64,000 nt of DNA. It comes from Candidatus Omnitrophota bacterium (GTDB lineage Bacteria > Omnitrophota > Omnitrophia > Omnitrophales > JACROU01). Below are positions 6,669-43,749 of the stretch, one piece after another. A program made the translations under genes and the position numbers. The notes under the pieces were generated by a model. That model was given only the letters and a program-made list of their open reading frames with translations, made no database searches and was not told the origin of the DNA. Position 1 is the first letter of the stretch. Each line of letters begins with the position of its first letter. Location of the stretch: the NCBI GenBank assembly GCA_016214265.1, contig JACROU010000034.1, positions 5,878 to 69,877 of the forward strand. The letters run 5' to 3'.

Positions 6669-6781
6669 AAATTAATTGAACTTTCGATATGGATAACGGT
6701 TGTAGCATTTTCGACAGGACGTGAGGGGTACTTTAGCGGGTAGGGGCTTAGCATGCTAAACCCTACAAAAGAATCCGAGAA

Positions 6782-9334: not shown

Positions 9335-9838
9335 TCAAGAAAGCTCAGCAATTTGTTTTGGCGTCATCAACCACTCTAAAGTGGCGCATTGATCGTATTT
9401 CAAATCATAGACGGTCAGTTTGGCAAGACCGGCCTTTTTCATATTGATGGAACCTGCCTTATTCCCCAACATCAGCATTGAAATAAGCCCGCTCAAATAA
9501 GGCTCGTGACCAACGATCAGAATGCTCTTTCGAGATTTGTAGTGCTTATCAATCTCAGAAACAAGCCTCTTGGGATCCCCCCCGATGGAAGCCAGGTTCT
9601 CGGTCACGGCAACTTTCTTTTTTAAATCAAAGATGTTGGCAACAATATCGGCCGTTTGCCGTGTTCGAAGATATGGACTGGTTAGAATCAAATCGAATGA
9701 AAGGTCCATCGCAAGCATCCCCTTCGCGACGTCTTTCATTTTCTGAATACCTTCATCCGTTAACGGACGCTGGCTATCGGTTCTGAATTTCGGACCGGGA
9801 TTCTCCGCAATGGCATGACGTAAAATGAAAAGTTCCAT
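9335..9838 (-). CDS. sixA: phosphohistidine phosphatase SixA (histidine phosphatase superfamily)
   Basis: MELFILRHAIAE... (RHG/RHA motif) and ...IVGHEP... motif; start set at internal Met. Confidence 0.7.
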   Translation of the reverse strand: MELFILRHAIAENPGPKFRTDSQRPLTDEGIQKMKDVAKGMLAMDLSFDLILTSPYLRTRQTADIVANIFDLKKKVAVTENLASIGGDPKRLVSEIDKHYKSRKSILIVGHEPYLSGLISMLMLGNKAGSINMKKAGLAKLTVYDLKYDQCATLEWLMTPKQIAELS

Positions 9839-9916
9839 AGTATGATATGATTTACCAAGGGTTAACACAAATCGAAGGCATCTGGTACCTTCTGTAAAAT
9901 ATCACGGATCGCTGTT

Positions 9917-14907: not shown

Positions 14908-15886
14908 CGCATTCCTCCTGTGCCAATTTAGCCGCACCCATCACAATCGAATAATCCTTCAGCTTCGCCGCGACCACTTTCACATTTTTTACAAGCCCCG
15001 ACATCGCGTAGTGCCGCATCGACTCATCAGCCTCAGGAATGATAATTTTCCCCATCGCTTCTACCACACCGCCGCCCAGCACAATTATTTCGGGATTCAG
15101 AACATTTACAATATTTGCCATCGCCATGCCCAGCAATTTCGCTTTATTCTTCACCAAAGTTTTTATCGCCGCATCTCCGGCTTTAATCGCAGCGGCCAAC
15201 GCACCGCTTTTTATTTTCGAAATGTCGGTTCCGGACATTTTCAGCAGTTTGGGCGCGCGATTTTTCAGCGCGAGCATAGCCGCTTCCGCCGCAATAGCGG
15301 GCCGGCCAATTTCCGTTTCAAGACAGCCGCGATTGCCGCATCCGCACACCGGCCCGAGAGGATCCACCAGGGTATGCCCAATTTCACCGGCGGCTCCCAT
15401 AGAACCCTGATAAAGTTTTCCATTCAAAATAAGTGCGCCGCCAATCCCTGTCCCGAGAAAAATGCCGATGACATGCGAATACCCGCGCGCCGCACCAAAA
15501 TGGAATTCACCGTACAATCCAACATTCACATCATTTTCGAGAGTCACCGGAACATCAAAATATTTACTGAGTTTTTTTCCGAGAGAAAGATTATTAAGGA
15601 ATGAAATGTTGGGAGATGAAACAACAACGCCTTCTTTGACGTCGATAATTCCGGGACATCCGACGCCGATTGCCGCAACGCTCTCGAGCCCGACTTTAGC
15701 CCCATTCAGCACTTGAAGAACGCTATCAACAATAGCACCGAAGAAATACTTTTCGCCCTTGTCGACCTGCACCTTGGTTTTGAGCGTTGAAATCAACCGG
15801 AACTTCTTATCCAATAGTCCGGTCAACATTTTGGTTCCACCCAAGTCAATGCCTATGAAGTACTTACGCTTCTTCTTTTTGGCCAT
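14900..15886 (-). CDS. ROK-family sugar kinase (glucokinase-like)
   Basis: 328 aa; IGIDLGGTK N-terminus, ROK zinc motif (CGCGNRGCLE). Confidence 0.75.
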   Translation of the reverse strand: MAKKKKRKYFIGIDLGGTKMLTGLLDKKFRLISTLKTKVQVDKGEKYFFGAIVDSVLQVLNGAKVGLESVAAIGVGCPGIIDVKEGVVVSSPNISFLNNLSLGKKLSKYFDVPVTLENDVNVGLYGEFHFGAARGYSHVIGIFLGTGIGGALILNGKLYQGSMGAAGEIGHTLVDPLGPVCGCGNRGCLETEIGRPAIAAEAAMLALKNRAPKLLKMSGTDISKIKSGALAAAIKAGDAAIKTLVKNKAKLLGMAMANIVNVLNPEIIVLGGGVVEAMGKIIIPEADESMRHYAMSGLVKNVKVVAAKLKDYSIVMGAAKLAQEECDA

Positions 15887-15946
15887 GAAACACCCCTGGG
15901 TTATTGACAGGGCAGTCCTTGCCCCTATGTAGGAAGGATACTTGAT

Positions 15947-16612
15947 TTACTGTTGGGTTTCAATATGATGGCGGACTTCCTTGCCCTGCTTCATATAGAT
16001 GACGTCTTCGGCAATGTTGTTGGCCAGATCAGCGATGCGCTCCAGATTGTGACCGATAATAATCAGACTCATCCCGGTTTTTACGATGGAAGGATCTTTC
16101 TGCATCAATTCCACAATTTGCTGATAAATTTCGTCGTTATAATCGTCCACTTCATCGTCCCGTTTCAACACACTTCGAGCAAGCTCCACATCCCCGTTCA
16201 CGAAAGCGTCGAGAGCGTCCTTGAGCATTTTCAGCGCCGCCTGCGCCATTTCGGGAAGATGAATATGGGTTTTCAACACAGGCTCTTTCATCACGATCAA
16301 AGAACGTTCCGCAATATTGACAGCATGGTCGCCCATCCGCTCGAGGTCCGTATTAATTTTCAAGATCGACGTCACCACACGCAAATCAACCGCCATCGGC
16401 TGTCCCAACGCAATCAGACTATGCCCCATCTCATCGATTTCAATTTCAAGCTGATTGATAACTTTATCACCGGCCACCACCTGATTAGCCAGAATACTAT
16501 CGCGTTTGAGAAGGGCCTGAATCGCCTTCTCAACCGTTTCTTCCACGAGCAAACCCATGCGAAGAAGTCTCTGTTTCAATTCTTTCAAGTCTTCATGAAA
16601 ATGTCGTTCCAT
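15947..16612 (-). CDS. phoU: phosphate transport system regulator PhoU
   Basis: Two PhoU repeats (E/DxxxD motifs: ...DDEVDDYNDEIY...); start set at internal Met to avoid 80-nt overlap with pstB. Confidence 0.8.
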   Translation of the reverse strand: MERHFHEDLKELKQRLLRMGLLVEETVEKAIQALLKRDSILANQVVAGDKVINQLEIEIDEMGHSLIALGQPMAVDLRVVTSILKINTDLERMGDHAVNIAERSLIVMKEPVLKTHIHLPEMAQAALKMLKDALDAFVNGDVELARSVLKRDDEVDDYNDEIYQQIVELMQKDPSIVKTGMSLIIIGHNLERIADLANNIAEDVIYMKQGKEVRHHIETQQ

Positions 16613-16622
16613 CAGTTTCTCC

Positions 16623-17447
16623 TCATCCAAATCGACCGGTGATATAATCTTCTGTTTCTTTTTTATCGGGTGTTGTAAAAATCTTTTTCGTCTCGCCGTG
16701 TTCAACCAAAAGTCCCAAATAAAAATATCCGGTAAAATCGCTGACCCGCGCCGCCTGCTGCATATTATGCGTCACAATCACGATTGTGTAATTTTTCTTG
16801 AGCTCGTGAATCAGTTCTTCAATCTTTGCCGTGGAAATCGGATCCAATGCCGAAGCGGGTTCGTCCATCAGCACAATTTCAGGATTCACCGCCAGAGCCC
16901 GTGCAATGCAAATCCGCTGCTGCTGGCCGCCGGAAAGTTCCAGCGCAGGCTTTTCCAGGCGGTCCTTAACTTCGTCCCAGATCGCGGACTTCTTCAGACT
17001 TTCCTCCACGATCCCCTCGAGCATTGATTTATTTTTGATTCCCTGAAGCCGGGGACCGTAAGCCACATTATCAAAAATAGTTTTCGGAAACGGATTCGAC
17101 TTTTGAAACACCATACCCACGATGCGTCGCAGCGCCACGACATTGATCTCGGAACCGTAAATATTTACCCCGTCAATAATCACCGATCCCTCAATCCGCG
17201 CTCCGGGAAGCGTATCATTCATTCGATTGAGTGTTCTTAAAAAAGTGGATTTTCCACATCCTGACGGCCCGATCAGAGCGGTCACCGCTTTTTTTTGAAT
17301 GTCGAGTGTGACACTTTTCAAAGCATGCACGCTGGAGTAATAGACATTCAAATCCTTAACCTTAATACTGATCGACGAATTATGTTTGTCCATTGGCACC
17401 GCCTTCTGAGCGTGAAAAATCTTTTCTTCCACCGGTACATTCATCAT
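16623..17447 (-). CDS. pstB: phosphate ABC transporter ATP-binding protein PstB
   Basis: Walker [10 protein letters not shown], signature LSGGQQQR, Walker B LMDEP; PstB-typical length. Confidence 0.9.
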
Positions 17448-18406
17448 ATAGTTACCAATCCTTGTTTCTTGCGGAAGTACATTCGAAATAAAACAGCCAC
17501 TAAGTTCAACAAAAACGTCAGTGAAATCAAGACCAGCGTAGTTCCATACTGAATCGGAAGTGTCTTTTCTGCGTCAACCGACTGCGTGGCCATGATGTAG
17601 ATGTGATATGAAAGATCCATAAATTGATCGAAGGGATTGACCATCGGGATAAAACCAAACAGATTCACAACCGGCAAATGCGGCAAAAAATAGGCGACAC
17701 CCGTAAACAGAATCGGCGCTGTCTCGCCTGCCCCGCGGCTCACCGCCAAAATCGCACCCGTTAAAATGCCGCCGCGCGCCTGAGGGATCACCACCCGCCA
17801 AATCGTCTGCCACTTCGTCGCCCCAAGCGCTAGTGAAGCCGCGCGATGACTTTGGGGAACGCTAATCAACGCTTCTTCCGTTGAAACAATAATCACGGGC
17901 AGCACCAGTATCGCCAGCGTCGCCGCCGCCCAAAGCATGCAAGGCTGGCCGAACAGAAGACCGGTTTTGAGCACTTGATCCAGATTCCGGCCAACAAAAA
18001 GAACAAAAAATCCGAGACCGAAAAGCCCAAAAACAATTGATGGAACTCCGGCCAGATTGTTAACCGCGGCTCGGATTAGGCGAAAAACAATTCCATCTCC
18101 GGCATACTCCACCAAATAAATCGCAGCGGCCACACCAAGCGGCAGCGCCATTACCACCATCAACACTGTTTTAGCAATAGCCCCAAAAATGCATGGGAAA
18201 ATTCCGCCTTGAGTCATGCCATCGGTGGGCGCCAGTAATAGAAATGACCCTGTAACGACCCCCGCACCATTTTTTACGATAATCCACAGAATCAAAAAGA
18301 TCGCTATCAGCGGAACGACAGCAAAAATACGCACCAGTCCGTTCATGAAGTTTTCGGAAAGGTTGTCGTGTTTTACGGTGAGATTGGAAACGATGGATTC
18401 TCTCAT
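17444..18406 (-). CDS. pstA: phosphate ABC transporter permease PstA
   Basis: 320 aa polytopic membrane protein with ABC permease EAA-like loop; operon position. Confidence 0.8.
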
Positions 18407-18408
18407 AA

Positions 18409-19359
18409 TTACATTCTCAATTTCCGCCGCATTTTGTTGATCACAACTTCAGAACAAATATTCAGAACAAACGTCATCGTAAACAGAATCGCTCCCACGA
18501 GAAAAAGAACGTAGTAATGTTCACTGCCCTGGACCACCTCACCCATTTCGGCGGCGATATTCGCTGTCATAGTTCGAACGCTTGAGAACATATCCAACGT
18601 TACCAGCGCGGCGTTTCCCGTCGCCATCAGCACAATCATGGTCTCGCCCAGCGCACGGCCGAATCCCAAAAGCACGGCCGCTGAAATTCCAGAAACGGCG
18701 GCGGGCACCACCGTTTTCCAAATCGTCTGCCACTTCGTCGCACCCAAAGCGTAGGAAGCGTCGCGAAGTTCTTTGGGAATTGCCCGAAGCGCCTCTTCCA
18801 CCAGTGTGACGATAATTGGAAATGTCACAAGCGAAACGCCGAGCGCCCCTACAAAAGCATTCAACCGGAATTTAGTGTGAAACAAATCCTGAACAAATGT
18901 GGCGACAACTGCCAGCATCAAAAATCCGATCACGACGGAAGGAATGCCGGCCAGCAATTCTAGTGTGGGCTTCAACGTTTCCCTCACCCGCGCAGACGCA
19001 ATTTCGGACAGATAAATGCCGCAGCCTATACCGAAAACCGAGGAAATCACTGTCGCCGGAAATGCCACCAGAAAACTTCCGCAAACAAGCGGAACAATGG
19101 AATATTTTGGAACTTCAGAAACCGACTGCCACATGACTTTGAAAATATTTTTCTCGTCGTATGGGTCGTACACCCACTTGCCGATCAAATCCAGAGGGGA
19201 TACAGACTTAAATGTCAGCATCCCCTCTTTGAAGAGAAATAAGAAGATCAGCGAAATAAAAACAATCGAGGCAATCCCGGAAATAAAGAGGGCTTTTTCA
19301 ATCAGCCACTCGGCAGGATGATGATTTTTCCGGGTTAATTCTTGAGTGATATCCGTCAT
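18409..19359 (-). CDS. pstC: phosphate ABC transporter permease PstC
   Basis: 316 aa polytopic membrane permease, operon position between pstS and pstA. Confidence 0.8.
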   Translation of the reverse strand: MTDITQELTRKNHHPAEWLIEKALFISGIASIVFISLIFLFLFKEGMLTFKSVSPLDLIGKWVYDPYDEKNIFKVMWQSVSEVPKYSIVPLVCGSFLVAFPATVISSVFGIGCGIYLSEIASARVRETLKPTLELLAGIPSVVIGFLMLAVVATFVQDLFHTKFRLNAFVGALGVSLVTFPIIVTLVEEALRAIPKELRDASYALGATKWQTIWKTVVPAAVSGISAAVLLGFGRALGETMIVLMATGNAALVTLDMFSSVRTMTANIAAEMGEVVQGSEHYYVLFLVGAILFTMTFVLNICSEVVINKMRRKLRM

Positions 19360-19379
19360 GAACCTCTTATTAGTCCCCT

Positions 19380-20258
19380 CTATTTTACTTTCAATGGAAT
19401 ATAGCCGACTTCTTCCACAATTTTTTGTCCCTCAGGACTAAGAATCCAACTAAGATATTCTTTGATTTTCCCTTTCGGCTTGAAACCCGTGTACATATAA
19501 AGATAACGGGCTATGGGATAGTGCCCTGACCAAGCCGCTTCATAATCGGCTTTTCCCTCAACATTTAAAGGACTGACGGCTTGAGATTTGTCATCTTTTT
19601 TGATGGGAAGAATTTTCAGATTCGGCTGATTCAAAAAATAAGCGACACCGCCGTAGGCAATTCCGTTAGCATCTTTGCTGATCGCGTTAACCGATGCGCT
19701 GGTTCCCGGAACGGTCTGGCAATCCGCGGCGAAATCCTGATTTTTCAGGACCAGTTCTTTAAAAAACGCGTACGTTCCGCTGTTTGATTCACGAGAATAA
19801 CGGATAATTTCCGCGTTATTGCCGCCGACGTCTTTCCAGTTATTGATTCGCCCCGTGTAAATTCCCATCAATTGCTTCATCGTCAGTGATTGAACAGGAT
19901 TATCTTTATTCACGACAACCGCGATACTGTCCATTCCCACCTTAAACTCAGCTGGATAATATCCGGCCGACTTGGCCTGCTGAATTTCCTTTTCTTTGAT
20001 CGGACGGCTGGCATTGGCGATATCTGTCGTTCCGTTGATGAGTGCCGCAATACCAGTTCCTGAACCTCCGCCAGTTACCTGAATCGAAACATCAGGATTA
20101 TTCTTCATGTACAGCTCAGCCCAACGCTGACCCAAAATTACGATCGTGTCGGATCCTTTGACCGTGATGTTGTTGGCGGCAAACGCCACCGGGCTTGCGC
20201 ACATGATCCCAATCAAGGCAAGCGATAAAATTTTATTCCTGAGATTTTTCATTTTCAT
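19380..20258 (-). CDS. pstS: phosphate-binding periplasmic protein PstS
   Basis: 292 aa, signal peptide, ...VKGSDTIV...GGGSGTG... PstS-family motifs; strong RBS AGGAGAT. Confidence 0.85.
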   Translation of the reverse strand: MKMKNLRNKILSLALIGIMCASPVAFAANNITVKGSDTIVILGQRWAELYMKNNPDVSIQVTGGGSGTGIAALINGTTDIANASRPIKEKEIQQAKSAGYYPAEFKVGMDSIAVVVNKDNPVQSLTMKQLMGIYTGRINNWKDVGGNNAEIIRYSRESNSGTYAFFKELVLKNQDFAADCQTVPGTSASVNAISKDANGIAYGGVAYFLNQPNLKILPIKKDDKSQAVSPLNVEGKADYEAAWSGHYPIARYLYMYTGFKPKGKIKEYLSWILSPEGQKIVEEVGYIPLKVK

Positions 20259-20300
20259 ATCTCCTGTATTCTATTTTTGCTACGTAAACTCCAGTTTTAA

Positions 20301-20318
20301 TTAATGTAAAGTTTGTGT
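20301..20318 (-). promoter_or_regulatory. Pho-box-like element: exact 18-nt sequence TTAATGTAAAGTTTGTGT (plus strand) shared with the crcB upstream region; part of four TTtACa-like hexamers phased at 11 bp upstream of pstS
   Basis: Gene-orientation reading: aTTACAc-aaac-TTTACA-ttaat-TAAAAC-tggag-TTTACG, cores spaced exactly 11 bp; identical 18-mer recurs at 25221-25238. Confidence 0.45.
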
Positions 20319-20327
20319 AATGTTTGC

Positions 20328-21815
20328 TTAAAACTTCCACAAGAGATCAACCTGCAGACGCCGCTGTGTTTCGTCAATCACTCCGGCCGTCCCGGCATTT
20401 AAATTATCAACCAGATAGCCGGAGCAAGAAAAAATCAGGCTATCCGTTATGCAATAACTTAGTTTAAGCACACTACCCTGTTTGCCGGCGTAGCCATTAC
20501 CAAAATCGCTATCCGAGAAAGCACCAACAACCGCATTGGCGCCAATATAGCGATACTCATAACGCGCTTCCCAGTCACCCTTTTTGTTGACAGATCCCAA
20601 ACGTGTTCCCAAAGCCCACGCAAAATCGGAGTGCAAAATGGTTCCCCCCTGATTTCCAATGGGACTGGCGCCAACGTTATCCGCGATATCAACGAAGAAT
20701 CGTGTTGGAAATCCATAAGGATATATGGCAATTTCATTATAAGTTTCAACGACTTGAAATTCGCGGGTATCCAACTGAGAAGTAGGTCCGCTCACATTAG
20801 GGTTACCACGTGCAAGACTGGTACCGCCGAGTGTGAAATTATTGTTCTGCCCGTAGTTCATATAATTGTAGTAAGAAAAGGCGGTTAAAAAATCCACCGG
20901 CCGTTCCAGAAATGGCGTGTAAAAAACAGGATTCAAGCCCCCCTGAATGGCCCAGAGCTCGGAATCTCCAGTCGTGGCAGCATTCAACGAATTCGGAGAA
21001 GCCAGCGCCGAGCTCTCCATCAATACATATTGCCCCGCAAGGAGATAGCCTTTGAGATCAAAATTATCTGAATCGATCAAATTGACATTGATTTTTTCAT
21101 AAACGCCTTCTGGCTTCACATCACGGTCCCAAATAATTTCAGATGAACCTATCTCGAAGGGATTATTTGCTTTACCCGCCGTCACTTCCAATTTCTCAAC
21201 GGGACCTATTTTTGCCCAATTCGGCGTGTAGGTTGCATATGCCTTATCAAACCAGACATTTTTGTAATTAAACAAATTAGTCAAAGTTTGATTTGAGGAC
21301 GTTGGGTCCGTACTCGTTCCTCCCACTTGTCCATCAGCTGTTGTCAGCGAAAATCCCACTTTCATTTGATCACTGAAAGTTTTCTCAAAACCATATCGGA
21401 CACGAAAACGAAAACGGTTACGAGCATCGGTCTCACCGGGATTTCCACTCGTATAATCCTGACCGTCATAGCGCAGTCTCAAATCACCGCCAAATTTCAA
21501 ATCCTTCAGCCATTTACTTGCACCGCCAAGAGCTGTACTCAAGCGTTCGTTGAATTCCGTATCGCTCATGGGGGGAGTTGCTAGCCCTTGCGCTCCTTCA
21601 ACACTTGGAGGTGTCTGAGGGCCTTTGATTTCAAGAGAACGAATTTTCTCATCTTGTTTAACAACGGTCTGTTTCATTTCACCCAGTTCTTTTTTCAAGT
21701 CATCAACCACTTTGCTCAGCACAGCAACCTGGTCGACATCCGCCCAAGCTGTGGTCGAAAAAAGAACAGCGATTAATGAAAACGCTGCGATAACTCGATT
21801 AAATTTCATTGCCAT
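20328..21815 (-). CDS. outer-membrane porin-like beta-barrel with N-terminal coiled coil (DcaP-like / phosphate-porin candidate)
   Basis: 495 aa; signal peptide, coiled-coil heptads (LSKVVDDLKKELGEMKQTVVKQDEKIRSLE), beta-rich alternating pattern, C-terminal ...LLWKF aromatic end; sits between phoBR and pstS. Confidence 0.5.
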   Translation of the reverse strand: MAMKFNRVIAAFSLIAVLFSTTAWADVDQVAVLSKVVDDLKKELGEMKQTVVKQDEKIRSLEIKGPQTPPSVEGAQGLATPPMSDTEFNERLSTALGGASKWLKDLKFGGDLRLRYDGQDYTSGNPGETDARNRFRFRVRYGFEKTFSDQMKVGFSLTTADGQVGGTSTDPTSSNQTLTNLFNYKNVWFDKAYATYTPNWAKIGPVEKLEVTAGKANNPFEIGSSEIIWDRDVKPEGVYEKINVNLIDSDNFDLKGYLLAGQYVLMESSALASPNSLNAATTGDSELWAIQGGLNPVFYTPFLERPVDFLTAFSYYNYMNYGQNNNFTLGGTSLARGNPNVSGPTSQLDTREFQVVETYNEIAIYPYGFPTRFFVDIADNVGASPIGNQGGTILHSDFAWALGTRLGSVNKKGDWEARYEYRYIGANAVVGAFSDSDFGNGYAGKQGSVLKLSYCITDSLIFSCSGYLVDNLNAGTAGVIDETQRRLQVDLLWKF

Positions 21816-21932
21816 TTCCTCCTTGATTGATTTTTAATTACTTCAGAACTCTAGAGAAGTGTACAAATGCCGCGTCTTGAAAATATTAGGAACATGTAAA
21901 AAACGGGTAAATCCAGGACCAGAGCTCGAAAA

Positions 21933-23738
21933 TCAGGATATGGTCCTGGTTTGAGAGATTCGAAGGGTGAACGAAAACCGGGATCCTTTTCCTGCCATAC
22001 TTTCACAAGAAACTTTACCGCCGTGGGCTTCAATAATATGCTTCACGATGGAAAGGCCCAGACCCGTGCCGCCCTCTTGCCGCGAACGGGCCTTATCTAC
22101 GCGGTAAAATCGCTCAAAAACACGGGCAATTTCATCCTGAGGAATTCCAATTCCCGTGTCTTCAATAGATATCTTCAAAAAATCACCGGCCTTTTCCGCA
22201 TCGATAATAATATTTCCGCCATCCTGATTAAACTTGATGGCGTTATCGATTAAATTGACAAGCACCTGCTTCAATTTATCCCTATCCGCCAAAATACGTC
22301 GACCCAAACTTTCCGCGATTCGATTTTCGAGCTGAATTCTTTTTTTCTTGATAGCTGGATAAAGCACAGAAAGCACGGCATCCATTTCCTGCTTTAAATC
22401 CAGCGACTCCAACTGTAGCGGCGATTGTTTCGACTCGATTTTTGACAAATCCAGAAGATCATCAATCAATCGGGTCAGCCGATCCGCATCGTCTTCGATC
22501 CGTTTCAGAAAATCCGCGCTTTTCTCAGGATCCTTCGACGCTCCAGACCGTAACGTTTCTGCGAATCCTTTAATCGATGTCAAAGGAGTCCTGAGCTCGT
22601 GAGACACATTAGCGACAAAATCACGCCGCATATTCTCCAGCTTTTTAACTTCGGTCACATCCGACAAAACCAAAACTCCCCGGACATCCCCATTTTGTTT
22701 CTCAATTCCCACCGCGTTTACATTCAAAAATTTCTCTTCAAACCTCGCGATCTCAAGCACTTTTTTGACAATCCCCCCCGTTTTCATCGCCTCACTCATC
22801 ATTTCATCAATTTCAGGATTGCGAACCACTTCAAGAAGACCTCTGCCCAAAACCTGACTTTCTACAATACCAAAAACTTCTTCAGCACCAGGATTGACGG
22901 TCAGAACGCTTCTGTCTCCGTCAACTGCAACAATCCCCTCCGACATATTTTTCAGAATTGCCGAAAGTTTTGCTCTCTGGCCTTCGCTCTCCGAAATACG
23001 AAGCTTGAGTGCCTTTACCATTTCATTCATGGCATCGGCCAGAATTTTCAGCTCGTCCTCGGCATCAATATAAATTTTCTCGGACAAATCCCCGCGAGCG
23101 TATCGCGTAGCCGCACGAGTCATCACCGCAATTCTAGAGCTGACGCGTCCGCCCAACCACAAGGCACAGATGATGATAAAAAATATTCCGGCGGCGGTTC
23201 CAATCAATACAGGTTTTTCGACCGTAGAAAAAGTTCGACGAACTATAGCCAATGGCAGACTAGCCCGGAAAATTCCAACCACGGAGTGAGAATCTTTGAT
23301 GGGAAGGGCAACATAAAGGATGTTAGTCTTCAACGTTTTACTGAAACGCTCGCTCATCCCGATGCCCTTCTTAAGTGCCTCCTGAACCTCGGGCCGCTCA
23401 AGATGATTATCCATTTGCTGCAAAGCTTCCCAGGATTCCTCTGACTCACCCAAAACAAAGCCGTCCGCACGAATCACAGTCAGACGGGCATCAGAATCTT
23501 TGCCCAATTTATGAATTAACGAATGTATTTTGCGGCGGTCGCCCTCTTGAATGAGCGCGGGTGTGATAATATTTTCGATAAGATGCAAACGCACAATGAG
23601 CGATTGCTTAAGCTCAGCTCGGATTTGCTGACGAAGCGAAAACGATATGTAGGCACCGGTGGCGATGAACACCACCGCGAAGAGCGTCAAAAATGCAAAA
23701 GTAATTTTCCGGCCAAATTTTTTTCGGATGAAATTCAT
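21933..23738 (-). CDS. phoR: PhoR-like sensor histidine kinase (TM-periplasmic-TM, HAMP, PAS, HisKA, HATPase_c)
   Basis: H-box HELRTPLTSIKGF, G-boxes GGTGLGLSIVKHIIEAHGG; overlaps phoB by 4 nt. Confidence 0.75.
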   Translation of the reverse strand: MNFIRKKFGRKITFAFLTLFAVVFIATGAYISFSLRQQIRAELKQSLIVRLHLIENIITPALIQEGDRRKIHSLIHKLGKDSDARLTVIRADGFVLGESEESWEALQQMDNHLERPEVQEALKKGIGMSERFSKTLKTNILYVALPIKDSHSVVGIFRASLPLAIVRRTFSTVEKPVLIGTAAGIFFIIICALWLGGRVSSRIAVMTRAATRYARGDLSEKIYIDAEDELKILADAMNEMVKALKLRISESEGQRAKLSAILKNMSEGIVAVDGDRSVLTVNPGAEEVFGIVESQVLGRGLLEVVRNPEIDEMMSEAMKTGGIVKKVLEIARFEEKFLNVNAVGIEKQNGDVRGVLVLSDVTEVKKLENMRRDFVANVSHELRTPLTSIKGFAETLRSGASKDPEKSADFLKRIEDDADRLTRLIDDLLDLSKIESKQSPLQLESLDLKQEMDAVLSVLYPAIKKKRIQLENRIAESLGRRILADRDKLKQVLVNLIDNAIKFNQDGGNIIIDAEKAGDFLKISIEDTGIGIPQDEIARVFERFYRVDKARSRQEGGTGLGLSIVKHIIEAHGGKVSCESMAGKGSRFSFTLRISQTRTIS

Positions 23739-24427
23739 AATTCCTGGTCAAAACGGTAACCCACATTTTTAACCGTGACCAGCCTCTGGGCTTCTGCTTT
23801 AAGTTTTTTTCTGAGCTGTCCAATGTGCATGTCGATGGTGCGCGTTTCAATGTTGACCGATTGATCGTAACCCCAAGCGTGTTCAAGAAGAAACTCGCGC
23901 GAAAGCACACGCCCTCCAGCCTCGAGCAGCGCTTTCAGAAGATCGTATTCTTTCGAGGTCATCTCCACCGTTTTACCTTTCACACTGACGATATGCTTTT
24001 CGGTATCGATTTGAAGCATTCCCGATTTTAGAATTTTTGTTTTGGGTTTTTCATAATGACGGCGAAGCACTGCTTTGACGCGGGCTACAAGTTCGCGGGG
24101 ACTGAACGGCTTGGTCATGTAATCATCGGCGCCCAGCTCGAGGCCGACAATCTTATCTGCTTCCTGAGCTTTTGCGGTCAAAATAATGATGGGAATGTGA
24201 GCCGTTTTTTCATCCTGCTTGAGAATTTTGGTGATTTCAATTCCGTTCATGCCAGGAAGCATGAGGTCGAGCACAAGAAGATCCGGCTTTTGCCTGCGAG
24301 CCTGCTCCAGTCCGGAATCTCCTCGGGAAGACGCCAGCACGCGATAGCCCGCATCCTCGAGATTGTATTTCACCAGCTCGAGAATATTACTTTCGTCTTC
24401 GACCACTAAAATTGTTTCTTTTTTCAT
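23735..24427 (-). CDS. phoB: OmpR/PhoB-family response regulator
   Basis: 230 aa; receiver (ILVVEDE...DLLVLDLMLPGMNG) plus winged-helix output (VTVKNVGYRF). Confidence 0.8.
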   Translation of the reverse strand: MKKETILVVEDESNILELVKYNLEDAGYRVLASSRGDSGLEQARRQKPDLLVLDLMLPGMNGIEITKILKQDEKTAHIPIIILTAKAQEADKIVGLELGADDYMTKPFSPRELVARVKAVLRRHYEKPKTKILKSGMLQIDTEKHIVSVKGKTVEMTSKEYDLLKALLEAGGRVLSREFLLEHAWGYDQSVNIETRTIDMHIGQLRKKLKAEAQRLVTVKNVGYRFDQEL

Positions 24428-24461
24428 TAAAATCCTCTTATTCCCATCTCAAGATGGGGGA

Positions 24462-24797
24462 TTATTTTTTTGCCCGATACATAATGACATTCACTTTTTC
24501 CAGCGTAATCAATCCCTCCTGAACCATCTCGTCAAGTTTCGGCAGGAATTTGCTGATTTTCTCCTCACTGTCCACAATTTCAATAATGATGGGCAAATCT
24601 TCGGACAACCGGAGCAATTTGGCCGTATGCATGTGACTTTTGCAGCCGAAGCCCAAGAACCCTTTAATAGCAGTTGCGCCGGCCAGTCCTTCCTTTTTCG
24701 CCAAGTGAACAATCGCCTCGTAAAGAGGCTGGCCCTTCCATTGATCCGCTTCTCCGATGAATATGCGTAACAGCTTCCCATCTGCTGGAATTTTCAT
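24462..24797 (-). CDS. DUF190 (PII-like) protein, typical partner of CrcB fluoride channels
   Basis: 111 aa; gene order crcB-DUF190 is a recurrent fluoride-regulon pair. Confidence 0.6.
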   Translation of the reverse strand: MKIPADGKLLRIFIGEADQWKGQPLYEAIVHLAKKEGLAGATAIKGFLGFGCKSHMHTAKLLRLSEDLPIIIEIVDSEEKISKFLPKLDEMVQEGLITLEKVNVIMYRAKK

Positions 24798-24811
24798 AGA
24801 CCTTTTCTCCT

Positions 24812-25186
24812 TTAAATCAGTTTAGCGATTAACATTCCGACCCAAAAAATAACGAACCCGGCAATGACGCTGATCACAACATTCAAGAACGCGCGCAACA
24901 CTTCGCCGTCGCGCATCAGATTGAATGTTTCCAGAATAAAAGTAGAAAAGGTGGTGAATGCTCCGCAGAATCCGATCATCAGGAGCACTTTCAGATTCGG
25001 GCCCAGCAGGAACTTTTCGTCCGCCAGGGTGCTGAGAAATCCAATCAGGAAACATCCTGAAAGATTCACCGCAAGCGTACCGTACGGAAAATCGGTTCCG
25101 AAGATCCGGTAAATGACGCCCGCCAAGGCATATCGGGCGAAAGTTCCGGTCAATCCTCCGAGAGCCAGACTCAACCACTTAAGCAT
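24812..25186 (-). CDS. crcB: fluoride ion channel CrcB/Fluc
   Basis: 124 aa, four TM helices, GxxGxxTTFSTF-like motif (FCGAFTTFSTF). Confidence 0.8.
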   Translation of the reverse strand: MLKWLSLALGGLTGTFARYALAGVIYRIFGTDFPYGTLAVNLSGCFLIGFLSTLADEKFLLGPNLKVLLMIGFCGAFTTFSTFILETFNLMRDGEVLRAFLNVVISVIAGFVIFWVGMLIAKLI

Positions 25187-25220
25187 TAGACTATCCTTCC
25201 GGGGTAAGATCAGCGTGAGG

Positions 25221-25238
25221 TTAATGTAAAGTTTGTGT
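25221..25238 (-). promoter_or_regulatory. second copy of exact 18-nt TTAATGTAAAGTTTGTGT element, within four 11-bp-phased TtACa-like repeats upstream of crcB
   Basis: Gene orientation: TTGACA-caaac-TTTACA-ttaac-cTCACG-ctgatc-TTACCC then RBS GGAAGGA and ATG; cores spaced 11 bp. Confidence 0.45.
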
Positions 25239-25242
25239 CAAG

Positions 25243-25857
25243 TTACGGCTTTGGCAAATTCACTTTCTTCCCTTGAGACAAGAAACAAAGAAAAGCGATA
25301 ACAAGGGCCACAATACTTAATAGTATTCCGGCAAAGGCGATAAGCATAATTTGATTCGGCTTTTTGTTGATCGCGTGAATTTCTCCAGAAGGCAGGCCAT
25401 CCAGCTTTTCCGGAAACTGGATTGCGTTTGAGGATAAAACATCGGAAGATTCAAATTGTTCGTTGACGATGCTCCCCTCAATGGTTCCTTCAACGCGGAA
25501 GATGTATTTTCCAGTACGGGTTGGCAAAAAATATCCCGCGTACGCGCCAGGTTCTCCGGATAACGGTTTCAGCTCGACGGAGAGCGTTTTGTCAGCGAAA
25601 ATGATCGTGCCTTTCAGCGATTGTTCAAGCCCGAAAATCGGACGGTTGTTCCGAGCGGAAGGATTTTTGATCAGAAACACAGCCGCATTCATTTGACCAG
25701 CAAAAGCCGGATCAGTCAGAAAGCCGACGACAAATTCATATTTTCCAGCAACTTTTCGATGTTCGAGAGCATAAGCCGATTGCTGAAAATAAACGAATGA
25801 TGCAAGCATCAAGAAAACGAAAACAATAAGTGACTTGAGATTAAATTCGAACTTCAC
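25243..25857 (-). CDS. hypothetical exported protein with C-terminal membrane anchor
   Basis: 204 aa; N-terminal signal peptide, beta-rich middle, C-terminal hydrophobic helix (IMLIAFAGILLSIVALVIAFLCFL); no family recognised. Confidence 0.4.
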   Translation of the reverse strand: MKFEFNLKSLIVFVFLMLASFVYFQQSAYALEHRKVAGKYEFVVGFLTDPAFAGQMNAAVFLIKNPSARNNRPIFGLEQSLKGTIIFADKTLSVELKPLSGEPGAYAGYFLPTRTGKYIFRVEGTIEGSIVNEQFESSDVLSSNAIQFPEKLDGLPSGEIHAINKKPNQIMLIAFAGILLSIVALVIAFLCFLSQGKKVNLPKP

Positions 25858-25873
25858 GCGACACCTCCTGTAA

Positions 25874-26875
25874 TTAAACTGATTCCAAAATATATTGAAA
25901 AATAAGCGGCGCGACTATCGTAGCATCCGATTCGATGATGAATCTCGGCGTCTTGGCATCCAATTTTCCCCACGTGATTTTTTCATTAGGAACCGCGCCC
26001 GAATAGGAACCGTACGAAGTAGTGGAATCGGAAATCTGGCAAAAATAGCCCCACAGCTTGCACTCCTCGCGCAAGTCCTGAATAATCAAAGGAACCACAC
26101 AAATCGGAAAATCTCCGGAAATGCCCCCCGCGATTTGAAAAAAACCAATCGTTTCTTTTATGGAATTGGCCCGGTACCAATCGATGAGCGCGGCCATTTG
26201 TTCCAACCCGGATTTAACGACCTGATAATTCGAGACTTCTCCGCGAATCACATTTGCCACAAAAATATTGCCGAGCGTGGAATCCTCCCAGCCTGGCGTA
26301 AAAATGGGGAGATTTTTTTCACAGGCGGCAACCAACCATGAATCTGCCGGATCGATTTGATAATCCGCCTTGATCTCGCCGCTTTTAATCAGCTGGTACA
26401 TGTACTCGTACGGAAAAAAACGCTGTTTCGTCTGATCCGCTTTTCGCCACAGTTTCAGCACTTTTCGTTCGATGCGTCGCATCGCCTCTTCTTCCGGAAT
26501 ACAGGTATCGGTCACCCGGTTCAACCCTGCTTCACGAAGCGCCAGCTCTTCCTCAGCCGTCAGATTCCGGTAATTCGGAACACGCTTGTAATGGTCATGC
26601 GCGACGAGATTGAAAATATCTTCTTCGAGATTGGCCCCGGTACAGCAAATCCCGTGAACTTTATCCTGACGAATCATCTCGGCCAGCGTGATACCCAGCT
26701 CGGCCGTACTCATCGCACCGCCCAACGTCACAAACATTTTCCCGCCTTTTTTCAAGTGGCTGATGTAAGCCTCAGCCGCGTCGACTATAACCGCAGCATT
26801 AAAATGCCGGAAATTTTTTTTGATAAAATCCTTAATTAAGATATTCTTTTTGCCCATAGCCGTCTGAGAAATCAT
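25874..26875 (-). CDS. deoxyhypusine synthase-like protein (DHS family, bacterial homologue)
   Basis: 334 aa from internal Met (MISQTAMGKK...); NAD-binding Rossmann-like layout and motifs reminiscent of DHS (GGAMSTAELG; GICCTGANLEED). Confidence 0.6.
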   Translation of the reverse strand: MISQTAMGKKNILIKDFIKKNFRHFNAAVIVDAAEAYISHLKKGGKMFVTLGGAMSTAELGITLAEMIRQDKVHGICCTGANLEEDIFNLVAHDHYKRVPNYRNLTAEEELALREAGLNRVTDTCIPEEEAMRRIERKVLKLWRKADQTKQRFFPYEYMYQLIKSGEIKADYQIDPADSWLVAACEKNLPIFTPGWEDSTLGNIFVANVIRGEVSNYQVVKSGLEQMAALIDWYRANSIKETIGFFQIAGGISGDFPICVVPLIIQDLREECKLWGYFCQISDSTTSYGSYSGAVPNEKITWGKLDAKTPRFIIESDATIVAPLIFQYILESV

Positions 26876-27693
26876 AGTCTCACCTTTACCATTTTGAGTA
26901 CTGCCAGAATGACAAGCACTGTGCCAAAAACACATATTATTGTAGCCCCTGTCGGGAAATCAAGGAAGTAAGAAATCGTGATCCCCAAAAAGCTCACAAC
27001 CGTTCCGGTGGCCCAACCTAACAAAAGACGGGTGGAAAGTTTCGTCGCAAATAAAATCGCGGCTACTGCCGGAACAATCAGGTACGAAAACACGAGCAGA
27101 ACGCCAGCAATTTGAACCGAACTTGTGACCACAACACCGAACGTGAGATAAAAAACCAAATCCCACAACTTCACATTCATCCCCCGCTGAAATGCCAGCA
27201 CAGGCTTCGTCGAAATAAGAATAAATATCCGCCGGAAATACCAGTGAAACACCCCGAGCAGGCTGTAAAGCAGTAGAATTTTAATAATTTGCGGCACACT
27301 CACGAGCAGGACATTCCCGATCAGCATCGAGCGGATGTGTTCGTCGCCCTCTGCGGAGCGGCTCAAAATCATAATCGCTGCAGCCGCCGCCATCGCGTAC
27401 ACGATTCCGATAATCGCCTCTTGCGGAATTTTTTCATGCCGCGTACGCGTAATCGAAAATATGAGCGCGCCGAGCACGGTCGCCAAAAGCGAAAACCAGT
27501 ACGTAACACTGCTATGAAGTTCGTAGCCGAACAAAATTGCGCAAGTTGCCCCAAGCGCGGCAATCTGAGCGAGCGCAAGATCCACGAAAATAACCTTGCG
27601 CTCAATCACATGAATTCCTAGATAAACATGAATACCAGTGAGAATCAAGCACGCCAGAAGCGGCTTCCACATAATCAGGAAAAAATCATTCAT
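26872..27693 (-). CDS. znuB: ABC-3 family metal (Zn/Mn) ABC transporter permease (ZnuB/TroCD-like)
   Basis: 273 aa, ~8 TM helices, typical ZnuB length and hydrophobicity pattern; adjacent to ZnuA-like binding protein. Confidence 0.7.
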   Translation of the reverse strand: MNDFFLIMWKPLLACLILTGIHVYLGIHVIERKVIFVDLALAQIAALGATCAILFGYELHSSVTYWFSLLATVLGALIFSITRTRHEKIPQEAIIGIVYAMAAAAAIMILSRSAEGDEHIRSMLIGNVLLVSVPQIIKILLLYSLLGVFHWYFRRIFILISTKPVLAFQRGMNVKLWDLVFYLTFGVVVTSSVQIAGVLLVFSYLIVPAVAAILFATKLSTRLLLGWATGTVVSFLGITISYFLDFPTGATIICVFGTVLVILAVLKMVKVRL

Positions 27694-28604
27694 TGGAGCG
27701 CCTGCACGATTTGATTAATGTCATAATCGATCATTGAAAAATAGTCGCCCGCCTCTTTTTTACCGTTTACATTTTGCGTCAAATTTAACAGGCGCGCACC
27801 GGTATCTTTGGAAACTTTTTTGGGAGTCGAAGTTTCATTGAACGGCTCGATGATAATAATTTTCACATTCCGTTCTTTCATCATCCGCTCAAGACCGGCA
27901 AGATGCTTCGCTGTCGGCGGAATCCCCGGTTTCGGCTCTAATTCACCGACCGATTCAAGCCCGAAACGTTCGGTGAAATACGGCCAACTTTTGTGATACG
28001 TGACCACCGAAGCACCTTTACACAAAGCCATCGCAGCCTGCCAGTGTTTCATTTTCTCATCCATCTTTCGGTTAAATTGCTCAAGATTTTGCCGAAAATA
28101 TTTTTCGCTCTCAGGGAAAATTCTGGAAAATCCATCCGCGATATTTCCCGCCATGATTTTCGCGTTTACAGGATCAATCGCGTAATGCGGATTGCCGAAA
28201 GCATGAATATCCCCTTCGGTTCTGGAATACGTTGTCGGAATTTCAAGCAATGGAACGCCCACGGAAGCGTCAATAGCACCCTCATCCTTTTTGAGAAATG
28301 CCGGATTTCCTGCCGCGACAAGCATCGCATCACGCCAGGCTTCCAAATCCAGTCCGCCGTGGACAAAAACACGGGCTTTTTTGAGCATCATCAAATCCTT
28401 CGGATTCGGCTGAATCTGGTGAATGTCCCGAATCGGCGAAGCGACATGATGAACACTCACTTTTTCACCCGCGATTTCGCGGACAAGGCTTTCGAGCGTA
28501 GTCGTTGTCGTCACCACCCGGATTTTTTCTGCTGCAAAAGCACTATGACTTAAAAAAGTAAGCGCGAACAAAAACCAAATTATTTTTCTCATTTTAGTCT
28601 CCAA
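27690..28604 (-). CDS. znuA: metal ABC transporter substrate-binding protein (ZnuA/TroA cluster-9 family)
   Basis: 304 aa, signal peptide, two-lobe TroA-like pattern with conserved His residues (SVHHVASP...HAFGNPHYAIDP). Confidence 0.7.
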   Translation of the reverse strand: METKMRKIIWFLFALTFLSHSAFAAEKIRVVTTTTTLESLVREIAGEKVSVHHVASPIRDIHQIQPNPKDLMMLKKARVFVHGGLDLEAWRDAMLVAAGNPAFLKKDEGAIDASVGVPLLEIPTTYSRTEGDIHAFGNPHYAIDPVNAKIMAGNIADGFSRIFPESEKYFRQNLEQFNRKMDEKMKHWQAAMALCKGASVVTYHKSWPYFTERFGLESVGELEPKPGIPPTAKHLAGLERMMKERNVKIIIIEPFNETSTPKKVSKDTGARLLNLTQNVNGKKEAGDYFSMIDYDINQIVQALQ

Positions 28605-29942
28605 TCATTGAACTGGATGTTTGTCGACACCAATCGTGATATTCGCCTTCAGATAAACCGCATCATCCGTTCTTTCACCAGGAATTCCCGGATCCGAATG
28701 CGTGTACTGAAGAATGAAGCTGGCGAACTCGCTTTCCCACAACGTCACGTAAGGAGAAATCGCCAGCGACGGACGGCCACGGTCAAACGTTTCGAGCGGA
28801 TCAACCACATCAAGCCGGCAGCCTACGCTCCACAACGGGGACATGCGATAATCCACCAGCGTGTAAAAACCCCATGGTGTGGAATTCGCAACAACCAGCT
28901 TAGTGCGGTCTTCCAAATACCATTCGCTCTGAAATTTCAGCGTACGGCCTTCAGATAAATGCCGGATCAATGTGGCGTCCCAGCCCAAGACATGAACTCC
29001 GTAACGGCCCCCTCCTTTGGGACTTTGAACAAAAATTTCCGCACCTGTCGAATCGATCAGAGAACGCGGAATATTTTCATCGCCAAACATCGCGGTGCCG
29101 CCGAGTTCCAAATTCATCGAGTCCCCTAACTCAAAAAATGTTTTCAGGTGCGTATCAAAAATCGGACGCCGGGAAATGCCCGAAAAACTGCTACCGTTAT
29201 TGCCGCGAAGCAGCTCTCCGGAAATTTCCAGCGGAAGATCCCAGGGATTCGAAATTTGATTCGTTAATCGAATGCCCGAAGACGACAAGCCCTCCTCTGA
29301 GAAAAAGTCGCGAATCACAAGCGGATAGTCCACCGTCTCGAGCTGTTCCAGATGAAGCAGGTTCTGCTTGCCGATTTTCGCGCGGAATTTTCCGGCCTTC
29401 GCCGTAAACCCGAGAGGAAGGTCCCAGCGTGTGTAGTAGGCTTCTTCAATGTCAACGTTTTGATCTTCCAGCGCGTCGTTGAAACTGAGTGTGGCATCGA
29501 AACGTGAATATGGATCGACATAAGAACCAAAATTCAGCTCCAGCTCTTTCATCACGATCGTGTCATTTCCGTCCACGTCGTTCGTGTTGTTACGAGACAC
29601 ATTTCCCTGCACCACTCCAACCACACCAATGTCGGGATTGAATCCTTGAGACAGCCCGAAAAATCCGGGCGAGCTTTTCACCGGCTGTGGCTTGCGCGCG
29701 GCTTCAGCTCCCGTTGCAATCTGCCCGATTTTTCTTTCGAACTTATCTTCGAGAGAAATAATTTGTGACTGCTGGGAGCGAATCACTTCGTTTTGATTGT
29801 CCACCGTCGCCCGCAGCTTTTCGACAGACGTCTGCATTTTGATCAATTGATCTTGCAATGATTTCAAAACCTCTTCCTGGGCTTCCGCTCTACCAACGGA
29901 AAGAAGCAGAATGCAGGAGAGGGTCATAACCTGAATGCGCAT
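28605..29942 (-). CDS. outer-membrane porin-like beta-barrel with N-terminal coiled coil (paralog 2, linked to metal uptake genes)
   Basis: 445 aa; signal peptide, long coiled coil (LKSLQDQLIKMQTSVEKLRATVDNQNEVIRSQQSQIISLEDKFERKI), beta-barrel-like remainder. Confidence 0.5.
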   Translation of the reverse strand: MRIQVMTLSCILLLSVGRAEAQEEVLKSLQDQLIKMQTSVEKLRATVDNQNEVIRSQQSQIISLEDKFERKIGQIATGAEAARKPQPVKSSPGFFGLSQGFNPDIGVVGVVQGNVSRNNTNDVDGNDTIVMKELELNFGSYVDPYSRFDATLSFNDALEDQNVDIEEAYYTRWDLPLGFTAKAGKFRAKIGKQNLLHLEQLETVDYPLVIRDFFSEEGLSSSGIRLTNQISNPWDLPLEISGELLRGNNGSSFSGISRRPIFDTHLKTFFELGDSMNLELGGTAMFGDENIPRSLIDSTGAEIFVQSPKGGGRYGVHVLGWDATLIRHLSEGRTLKFQSEWYLEDRTKLVVANSTPWGFYTLVDYRMSPLWSVGCRLDVVDPLETFDRGRPSLAISPYVTLWESEFASFILQYTHSDPGIPGERTDDAVYLKANITIGVDKHPVQ

Positions 29943-42778: not shown

Positions 42779-42800
42779 ATAGCTATTAGCTAATAGCTAT
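42779..42800. repeat. perfect 22-nt palindrome ATAGCTATTAGCTAATAGCTAT overlapping the nusB stop codon, flanked by further AGCTAT arms (42767-42800)
   Basis: Read from sequence; reverse complement identical to itself. Confidence 0.9.
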
Positions 42801-43225
42801 TGTTCTTTCCCGCTCGGAAGTTTTTCAGAGTGACTGATTTTATCGAGAATGCCGTTCACAAATTTTCCGGAATCCGCCTGGGAAAATTTTTTAGCAAGGT
42901 TCACAGCTTCATTGAGGGTCACTTTGGGAGGAACATCAGCGGAGTTGAGCAATTCGTAAGCGGCCAGCCTCAAAATATTACGGTCGATCACGGCCATGCG
43001 GTTTAAATGCCAATTTTCAGCGTACTTTTTGATTAACTCATCGAGTTCCATAATTTTCCCGGTGGTCCCCCGAACCAGCCCTTCGGTAAATTTCCGGATT
43101 TCCGGATCATCCAAATCGCTGTGCTCCCAAAAATCACGAAGCACATCATCCACCTCGCTTTGCGTCAGATGAAGTTGATATAAAATTTGAAGGGCATATT
43201 CCCGGGCAATCGTGCGTTTGCGCAT
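42797..43225 (-). CDS. nusB: transcription antitermination factor NusB
   Basis: 142 aa; ...AREYALQILYQ... N-terminus typical of NusB; embedded in rib operon. Confidence 0.85.
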   Translation of the reverse strand: MRKRTIAREYALQILYQLHLTQSEVDDVLRDFWEHSDLDDPEIRKFTEGLVRGTTGKIMELDELIKKYAENWHLNRMAVIDRNILRLAAYELLNSADVPPKVTLNEAVNLAKKFSQADSGKFVNGILDKISHSEKLPSGKEQ

Positions 43226-43689: not shown

Positions 43690-43749
43690 GGAGTGAAATG
43701 GGGGTAAAAATGGCTTTTGTCATTTCCGCAAAAGCGCGAATGGCAACTA

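Follow-up and report, generated by a model that had tools for sequence, protein, structure and literature searches.

In Escherichia coli and Bacillus subtilis, the binding sites of the activators PhoB and PhoP replace the −35 element of the promoter at a fixed distance from the −10 element. The E. coli Pho box consists of two 7-bp repeats, one per 11 bp, which stand in for the −35 element about 10 bp before the −10 element, and the repeats of B. subtilis PhoP read TT(A/T/C)ACA. The principle of direct repeats every 11 nt is also documented for Streptomyces PhoP (PMC2275107). Here, we describe a Pho-box-type array upstream of crcB in a 64,000-nt stretch of DNA (the window) from a metagenome-assembled genome (MAG) of an uncultured Candidatus Omnitrophota bacterium. 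The genes of the locus all lie on the minus strand, in the order znuA-znuB-DHS-like-ORF204-crcB-DUF190-phoB-phoR-porin-pstS-pstC-pstA-pstB-phoU, where DHS-like denotes a deoxyhypusine-synthase-like gene and ORF an open reading frame. The central features are as follows.

25243-25857, minus strand: ORF204 (204 amino acids), last gene of the tightly packed znuA-znuB-DHS-like-ORF204 string
25203-25241, minus strand: Pho-box array with repeats R1 (TTGACA, 25241-25236), R2 (TTTACA, 25230-25225), R3 (CTCACG, 25219-25214), and R4 (CTTACC, 25208-25203)
25194-25200, minus strand: crcB Shine-Dalgarno sequence GGAAGGA, between R4 and the predicted −10 element
25188-25193, minus strand: predicted −10 element TAGTCT, 9 nt after R4 (offset 48, counted from the R1 start), with 1 nt between it and the crcB ATG
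24812-25186, minus strand: crcB, Fluc fluoride channel, 124 amino acids (PF02537 and TIGR00494)
24462-24797, minus strand: gene for a DUF190/UPF0166 protein, 111 amino acids (PF02641)
23735-24427, minus strand: phoB, PhoB-type response regulator, 230 amino acids (top match TIGR02154)
21933-23738, minus strand: phoR, PhoR/PnpS-type sensor kinase, 601 amino acids (NF046044 PnpS)

The locus shares with the PhoB and PhoP promoters of E. coli and B. subtilis the 11-bp direct repeats with a TTTACA-like core, a block of two to four such repeats next to the −10 element, and the lack of a −35 element, as well as sites before pstS, porin, and regulator genes and an OmpR-family regulator with a PhoB-like recognition helix. 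It differs from them in that the module is separated from phoB by the unrelated genes crcB and DUF190 and in that the predicted −10 element abuts the first start codon. Unlike the known Pho boxes, the Omnitrophota consensus and its geometry of four repeats plus 9 nt were derived here from sequence. Another related system is the crcB operon controlled by a fluoride riboswitch (Rfam RF01734), which carries the same cargo, crcB and DUF190, whereas the window locus has no riboswitch at any threshold tried.

The gap upstream of crcB contains a Pho-box-type array

The 56-nt gap between the stop codon of ORF204 (25243) and the ATG of crcB (25186) reads c-TTGACA-caaac-TTTACA-ttaac-CTCACG-ctgat-CTTACC-ccggaagga-TAGTCT-a-ATG, with the four repeats and the predicted −10 element as capital hexamers. 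The repeats keep an exact 11-bp period, and the module fills the gap almost completely, leaving a single nucleotide free on either side, next to the ORF204 stop codon and next to the crcB ATG. An earlier reading of this DNA (the original prediction) had proposed four 11-bp-phased repeats before crcB and an 18-mer in common with the pstS upstream region. Both claims were borne out. The repeats were found at 25241-25203, and the window contains exactly two copies of the 18-mer ACACAAACTTTACATTAA, one before crcB (25221-25238, minus strand) and one before pstS (20301-20318, minus strand). Only 0.04 matches to ACACAAACTTTACATTAA with up to three mismatches are expected, and 0 of 100 shuffles gave two; the identity is far beyond chance.

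The pattern TTWACA-N5-TTWACA, allowing one mismatch, matched four sites in the window against 1.1 expected. All four lie just upstream of crcB or a phosphate-related gene and on its strand, the genes being pstS, porin, crcB, and a CYTH-CHAD gene. The porin and pstS modules are collinear with that of crcB.

21858-21911, minus strand: porin Pho-box module, TTTACC-N5-TTTACA-N5-CTAATA-N5-AAGACG, then 9 nt and TACACT; top match of the position weight matrix (PWM)
20268-20321, minus strand: pstS Pho-box module, ATTACA-N5-TTTACA-N5-TAAAAC-N5-TTTACG, then 9 nt and TAGAAT; carries ACACAAACTTTACATTAA

The crcB and pstS modules are identical at 34 of 54 positions, as counted by hand from the register layout, which fits either a shared constraint or duplication of the module. 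The fourth Pho-box-like site (9851-9867, plus strand; TTTACC-aaggg-TTAACA, with TAAAAT at offset 44) lies in the divergent gap between sixA and CYTH-CHAD, and CYTH-CHAD is a plausible further member of the Pho regulon.

To avoid circularity, the PWM was trained only on the boxes of relatives. In the window it ranked the porin site first (20.1 bits), the crcB site second (16.5 bits), and the pstS site fifth (14.1 bits), and it detected no site inside crcB, inside DUF190, or directly before phoB. Further matches at 43692-43708 (minus strand), 14977-14993 (plus strand), and 52745-52761 (plus strand) were set aside as chance-level, since similar scores occur in shuffles; the first of these, TTTACCcccatTTCACT (16.0 bits), is the one next to ribH-nusB (43225-43689 and 42797-43225), which it closely precedes. 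We conclude that the repeats before crcB are a genuine Pho-box-type array, at which PhoB is predicted to bind, and that phoB-phoR has no other array of this type ahead of it.

The Pho-dependent transcript is predicted to begin inside crcB

All three of these window arrays have a TAnnnT hexamer at offset 48 exactly (TAGTCT for crcB, TAGAAT for pstS, and TACACT for porin), and 7 of the 11 arrays of relatives have one at offset 47-50 from R1. The probability of the agreement among the relatives' arrays is about 3e-8 when the loci's own TAnnnT frequency is used and about 1e-4 with a generous AT-rich background. From this, we infer that the hexamer is the −10 element. A search for another −10 element upstream of the crcB ribosome-binding site (RBS) found no TAnnnT at a workable distance, except for TAACCT, 1 nt after R2.

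The crcB start codon was fixed by comparison. For the 71 relatives with an alignment extending to residue 1-2, the CrcB N-terminus is conserved as M-x-K-W/F-L-x-L-x-x-G; therefore, translation starts at the ATG at 25186. Alternative starts were rejected on the same ground, the next in-frame ATG being codon 70. With a transcription start about 7 nt past the −10 element, the Pho-dependent RNA would begin at about 25181-25179, within codons 2-3 of crcB. Because this start is predicted inside the gene and the RBS lies upstream of the −10 element, such an RNA could not encode full-length CrcB. If the promoter geometry holds, CrcB may thus not be a Pho-induced protein.

Short distances between the predicted −10 element and the ATG, of only 9 nt, are also found before pstS in the window (20252-20273, minus strand) and before phoB in a related locus (L091, ~4285-4308); the AGGAG of pstS would fall upstream of the predicted start site of its transcript. 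These cases suggest that near-leaderless Pho transcripts are used in this lineage, but the 1 nt available at crcB would be too short a leader. An ORF of 118 amino acids with a GTG start (24822-25178, minus strand) overlaps nearly all of crcB in another frame and begins at the predicted Pho-dependent start site, which is probably a coincidence.

crcB, DUF190, phoB, and phoR are predicted to be co-transcribed

The gap between crcB and DUF190 is 14 nt and that between DUF190 and phoB is 34 nt (24428-24461), while phoB and phoR overlap by 4 nt (a gap of −4 nt). DUF190 has its own RBS, AGGAGA. The DUF190-phoB gap contains two features.

24441-24460, minus strand: stem-loop with a 6-bp stem (−10.7 kcal/mol; z = −0.68 versus shuffles), no U-tract on the coding strand
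24433-24439, minus strand: phoB Shine-Dalgarno sequence AAGAGGA

This agrees with the original prediction, which had placed a short hairpin and an AAGAGGA RBS in this 34-nt gap. As a terminator or attenuator of the coding strand, the hairpin was rejected on its z-score of −0.68 and its missing U-tract. The hairpin resembles a good intrinsic terminator in plus-strand orientation only, with ATTATTTTTT following the stem; no plus-strand gene converges there. No terminator-like site was found on the minus strand between crcB and phoB, and none after ORF204, before crcB. Because of the short gaps (14, 34, and −4 nt) and the lack of a terminator, a transcript initiated at the array would continue into phoB-phoR. 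A Pho-controlled transcript through crcB-DUF190-phoB-phoR is thus the best reading of the locus, and co-transcription is predicted. The same strand, the short gaps, the lack of a terminator, and the Pho array all support the proposed Pho-controlled unit, and neither a terminator nor a convincing promoter that would make phoB independent was found between DUF190 and phoB. One part of the proposal that did not stand so well concerns CrcB itself, which may escape this control because the predicted start lies inside its gene.

Pho boxes precede phoB in relatives of the phoBR locus

The closest homologues of the window PhoR are 46-55% identical to it, and the genomic contexts of seven were fetched (L087-L093). 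A scan of metagenome contigs with PhoR returned only four distant kinases (24-31% identity) and no close relatives of the locus. In L087-L093, the regulators beside the phoR/pst genes are 64-73% identical to the window PhoB and the recognition helix is nearly invariant; on this basis, the Pho-box motif should transfer from these relatives to the window. The linkage of phoB-phoR to porin-pstSCAB-phoU, present in the window, is conserved in relatives.

Arrays of the TTTACA-N5-TTTAC[AT] type lie directly upstream of phoB in five of the seven loci (L087, L088, L090, L091, and L093). In L089, the array is upstream of phoU-phoB, and in L092, phoB lies within a pstSCAB-phoU-phoBR string whose upstream region is beyond the end of the fetched locus. 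Further arrays precede the porin gene (L087, L090, and L093), small ORFs near it (L088 and L090), or pst-linked genes. The conserved Omnitrophota module thus comprises four 11-bp-phased repeats, two strong and two degenerate, followed by about 9 nt and TAnnnT. None of the seven loci has crcB nearby.

The crcB-DUF190-phoBR order is specific to one lineage

For the fluoride-channel side of the locus, a scan of the species genomes in GTDB, with the DUF190 protein as query, gave 80 crcB-DUF190 loci at 74-88% identity, almost all of them from Omnitrophota. crcB immediately precedes DUF190 in 77 of these 80, and the pair occurs in many different neighborhoods. An orthologous phoBR follows it in 0 of the 80. 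The varied contexts, never beside an orthologous phoBR, therefore indicate a local rearrangement in the window lineage. The arrangement is specific to one species-level lineage and looks like an insertion into the phoBR leader rather than a conserved design. Recent horizontal insertion was considered and discarded, as the GC content of crcB-DUF190 (0.44-0.49) shows no anomaly against that of the window (0.47). The identical crcB-DUF190-phoBR arrangement is present in two other assemblies of the same organism, one with 99.9% identity over 16.9 kb and the other with 100% identity, which rules out an assembly artefact.

Only two of the 80 loci, L010 and L037, have a regulator related to PhoB downstream of crcB-DUF190 (47-51% identical in one comparison and 52% in another). 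They come from sister MAGs and represent one lineage. Both (L010, 4529-8940; L037, 4528-~8000) contain a riboswitch with a terminator stem, crcB, DUF190, an OmpR-family regulator, a kinase, a PHO4/Pit transporter, and TauE. They resemble the window in that crcB-DUF190 directly precedes a PhoB/PhoR-like pair, here together with PHO4/Pit, and differ in that the fluoride riboswitch and its terminator stem are kept and the recognition helix of the regulator is divergent. Unlike the window PhoR, the kinase is a PnpS/PhoR-like protein of 312 amino acids without sensor domains. Unlike the window phoB, the L010 regulator gene is preceded by a 103-nt gap with its own TATAAT; a TTTACA-type array was sought before it and none could be phased. 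In L037, the regulator and the kinase read as a single ORF of 540 amino acids.

In about 15 relatives, genes of methionine-salvage type (PNP_UDP_1, IF-2B, and Aldolase_II) come after DUF190. For example, L012 has at 5352-8023 a gene starting MQMQKDVHLTGKDL, for a PNP_UDP_1 phosphorylase, and then an IF-2B-family gene and a class II aldolase gene, which looks like methionine salvage. The conserved gene with the MQMQKDVHLTGKDL start also follows DUF190, at a distance of up to about 20 nt, in L013, L015, L017-L019, L021, L024, L026, L027, L030, L035, L039, L041, and L045.

The lack of a fluoride riboswitch is ordinary

The original prediction had also stated that crcB lacks a fluoride riboswitch. 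At the RF01734 gathering score of 34 bits, the Rfam covariance model found no match across the whole window, and within 24300-25900 it found none even at E<=10 with lax filters, which confirms that statement. By comparison, the riboswitches of relatives score 48-57 bits. The RNA of the crcB upstream gap (76 nt around the gap) folds worse than its shuffles (z = +1.25).

This lack does not set the locus apart. RF01734 was detected in 9 of the 80 related loci (L009, L010, L028, L034, L037, L050, L075, L077, and L078), with a tenth copy cut by a contig end in L007, so that about 88% of the related loci are also without one. A regular-expression screen missed L009, L034, and L050, which Rfam detected. 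The riboswitches of relatives lie immediately upstream of the genes, except in L009, where the element (139-204, plus strand) is about 2.5 kb upstream of crcB (2704); there, crcB-DUF190 would be the distal genes of a longer riboswitch-controlled operon. According to a review, about 15% of Flucs are controlled by the riboswitch and about 85% are outside such control (PMC11139923). The missing riboswitch is therefore the majority state. Another relative, L005, has an nhaA-I RNA (RF03057, a riboswitch type; gathering score 37, score here 47.7 bits) at 5440-5502 on the plus strand, about 100 nt past DUF190.

Protein identities and genomic setting

By family match, the product of crcB is a Fluc/CrcB fluoride channel: it scores 104.5 bits (4.6e-30) against PF02537 (CRCB) and 107.7 bits against the equivalog TIGR00494, above the cut-off of 80.45. 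The DUF190 protein matches PF02641 (142.9 bits, 4e-42) and has solved homologues (2DCL, 3.6e-26; 1O51, 1.4e-24). The window PhoB has TIGR02154 (PhoB) as its top match; the score of 256 bits is below the cut-off of 296.2. PhoR scores 429 bits against NF046044 (PnpS), above the cut-off of 400, and 320 bits against TIGR02966, below the cut-off of 334; several of its homologues are named PhoR by their sources.

crcB-DUF190 forms the upstream border of a phosphate island (about 16 kb, 9335-25241) that includes sixA, CYTH-CHAD, ppk1, ppx, ROK, phoU, pstBACS, porin, phoR, and phoB. The neighboring genes are listed below.

27690-28604, minus strand: znuA
26872-27693, minus strand: znuB
25874-26935, minus strand: deoxyhypusine-synthase-like gene
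15947-21815, minus strand: phosphate-uptake block porin-pstSCAB-phoU, downstream of phoR
20328-21815, minus strand: Porin_5 porin gene, downstream of phoR
19380-20258, minus strand: pstS
18409-19359, minus strand: pstC
17444-18406, minus strand: pstA
16623-17447, minus strand: pstB
15947-16705, minus strand: phoU
14900-15886: ROK kinase gene
13348-14937: ppx
11297-13348: ppk1
9917-11320, plus strand: CYTH-CHAD (polyphosphate-associated) gene
9335-9868, minus strand: sixA

ORF204 (25243-25857, minus strand) has no Pfam or NCBIfam match and carries hydrophobic segments at its N- and C-terminus. The string upstream of crcB also includes an ORF of 445 amino acids (28605-29942, minus strand) with a signal-peptide-like N-terminus and no Pfam or NCBIfam match. 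The phoR stop codon lies within an inverted repeat (21936-21973, minus strand; CCAGGACC...GGTCCTGG, 8 bp, loop of 21 nt) that runs into the T-rich porin Pho box and may be a terminator or boundary element. An ORF of 2939 amino acids (55168-63987, minus strand) lies near the right-hand end of the window.

Discussion

On balance, we favor the reading that the module in the crcB gap is the autoregulatory promoter of phoBR, with crcB-DUF190 interposed. The module is read as the phoBR promoter because relatives keep a Pho box before phoB and the 34-nt gap of the window has none. In this lineage only, crcB-DUF190 would have come to sit between that promoter and phoB. Under phosphate limitation, phosphorylated PhoB (PhoB~P) would bind the module and recruit RNA polymerase, and the transcript, starting inside crcB, would run through crcB and DUF190 into phoB-phoR. 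It would yield DUF190, PhoB, and PhoR, probably without full-length CrcB. Full-length CrcB would come from read-through of the upstream znuA-znuB-DHS-ORF204 string, the likely source of its mRNA because no terminator precedes crcB. Operons that contain fluoride exporters are enriched in divalent-cation transporters (PMC11139923); the upstream znuA-znuB fits this enrichment and supports the view that crcB belongs functionally to the upstream string. Any coupling of fluoride to phosphate would then most likely follow incidentally from the gene order. Such a coupling could reach DUF190, but CrcB would be affected only with a start site further upstream than predicted.

Several points weigh against this reading. 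The PWM score of the crcB array (16.5 bits) is modestly above the mean best shuffle (14.3 bits; shuffle maximum 20.8), and R3 and R4 are weak matches to the hexamer. Individual PWM scores are near the shuffle maxima; therefore, the case is built on the motif, the shared 18-mer, position, strand, and conservation together. The transcription start is placed by the geometry of the −10 element alone, and a start some tens of nucleotides upstream would render CrcB Pho-induced. The untranslated crcB leader of 370 nt would be exposed to Rho-dependent termination, which is awkward for a phoBR promoter. Furthermore, the position of the crcB RBS between R4 and the −10 element could mean that there is selection for translation from starts within the array. 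Finally, a weak sigma-70-like match, ATGTCA-18-AATAAT (24490-24461), at the 3′ end of DUF190 is a possible independent basal promoter of phoB.

The retained crcB RBS also speaks for the explanation that follows the original prediction, a purposeful unit in which phosphate starvation induces both CrcB and DUF190; on this view, phosphoryl-transfer enzymes would suffer more from fluoride during a phosphate shortage. This explanation draws equally on the Pho-box and operon evidence, and a second, independent lineage (L010/L037) joins crcB-DUF190 to a PhoB/PhoR-like pair and PHO4/Pit. However, the predicted start site lies inside crcB, the arrangement is confined to one species-level lineage among about 80 related species, the L010/L037 pair keeps a riboswitch with a terminator stem and has a regulator with its own TATAAT region and a divergent helix, and the literature searches described below found no link between crcB and the Pho regulon. 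We therefore regard a purposeful unit as unlikely, although it deserves consideration. It is distinctly improbable that the array drives only crcB-DUF190 or is bound without effect and that phoBR is transcribed mainly from its own promoter near the end of DUF190 (3′ part), with partial termination or stabilization by the hairpin. The sigma-70-like match and the stem-loop, in whose minimum-energy structure part of the phoB RBS is paired as well, could be read in this way. Yet the match scores 9/12 and shuffles give matches of this kind at least as often (9 found versus 11.1 expected), the hairpin lacks a coding-strand U-tract and has a z-score of −0.68, and this genome alone would lack autoregulation, whereas relatives consistently have a Pho box before phoB.

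Two further explanations concern the array itself. The repeats might not be a PhoB site at all and might instead reflect chance, an ordinary sigma-70 promoter with TTGACA as its −35 element, or a divergent fluoride-sensing RNA. R1 is indeed a perfect TTGACA and the PWM scores are close to the shuffle maxima. Against this stand the exact 18-mer in common with the pstS site, the collinearity of the module with the pstS and porin modules and with the 11 arrays of relatives, and the lack of an acceptable −10 element 16-18 nt after TTGACA; a fluoride-sensing RNA is further contradicted by an unstructured gap RNA and by the absence of an RF01734 match at E<=10, compared with 48-57 bits in relatives. 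We consider this explanation very improbable. More doubtful still is the idea that PhoB~P, bound over the DNA of the crcB RBS, acts as a roadblock or occludes read-through while a truncated transcript is made, such that starvation would lower CrcB and raise DUF190 and PhoBR. The array and the −10 element do occupy the entire gap including the crcB RBS, with the predicted start downstream of the ATG. However, this idea is purely inferential and has no precedent in the lineage, and an elongating polymerase usually displaces activators.

The phoBR-promoter reading can be set against what is reported on fluoride and phosphate. Functional links to fluoride resistance are recorded for phosphate importers, pyrophosphatase, and polyphosphatase, as is a protective effect of phosphate against fluoride (PMC11139923). 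In the reported links, phosphate genes respond to fluoride; the window shows the reverse, a fluoride-export pair under a putative phosphate-starvation promoter. No paper in the library searched described this reverse direction, and literature searches there on crcB and the Pho regulon, crcB and phoB, and DUF190 and fluoride found nothing relevant. An adaptive rationale for joining fluoride to phosphate is speculation, and the two lineages of about 80 that link crcB-DUF190 to PhoBR-like systems are suggestive at most. That fluoride handling is wired into the phosphate-starvation response in some Omnitrophota as a recurrent, selected coupling, with PhoB~P inducing crcB-DUF190, or at least DUF190, together with phoBR, is a tentative idea that we hold to be rather unlikely.

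Overall, the locus shows a known type of system in a new arrangement, a Pho-box promoter ahead of crcB-DUF190-phoB-phoR of which CrcB itself may not be a regulated product. Its significance is limited by the single lineage and by a geometry that suggests that CrcB may escape control. Most fluoride channels have no riboswitch, and their regulation is largely unknown; a Pho-box promoter before crcB-DUF190 would be a concrete, testable alternative input for such channels, and a recurrent coupling, if true, would be one regulatory mechanism for the approximately 85% of Flucs without a riboswitch. Such a promoter would, in addition, be a first lead on the regulation of DUF190, whose function is unknown and whose gene almost always accompanies crcB in this phylum. 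Lastly, the candidate Omnitrophota Pho-box module may be used to predict Pho regulons from the genomes of this uncultured phylum.

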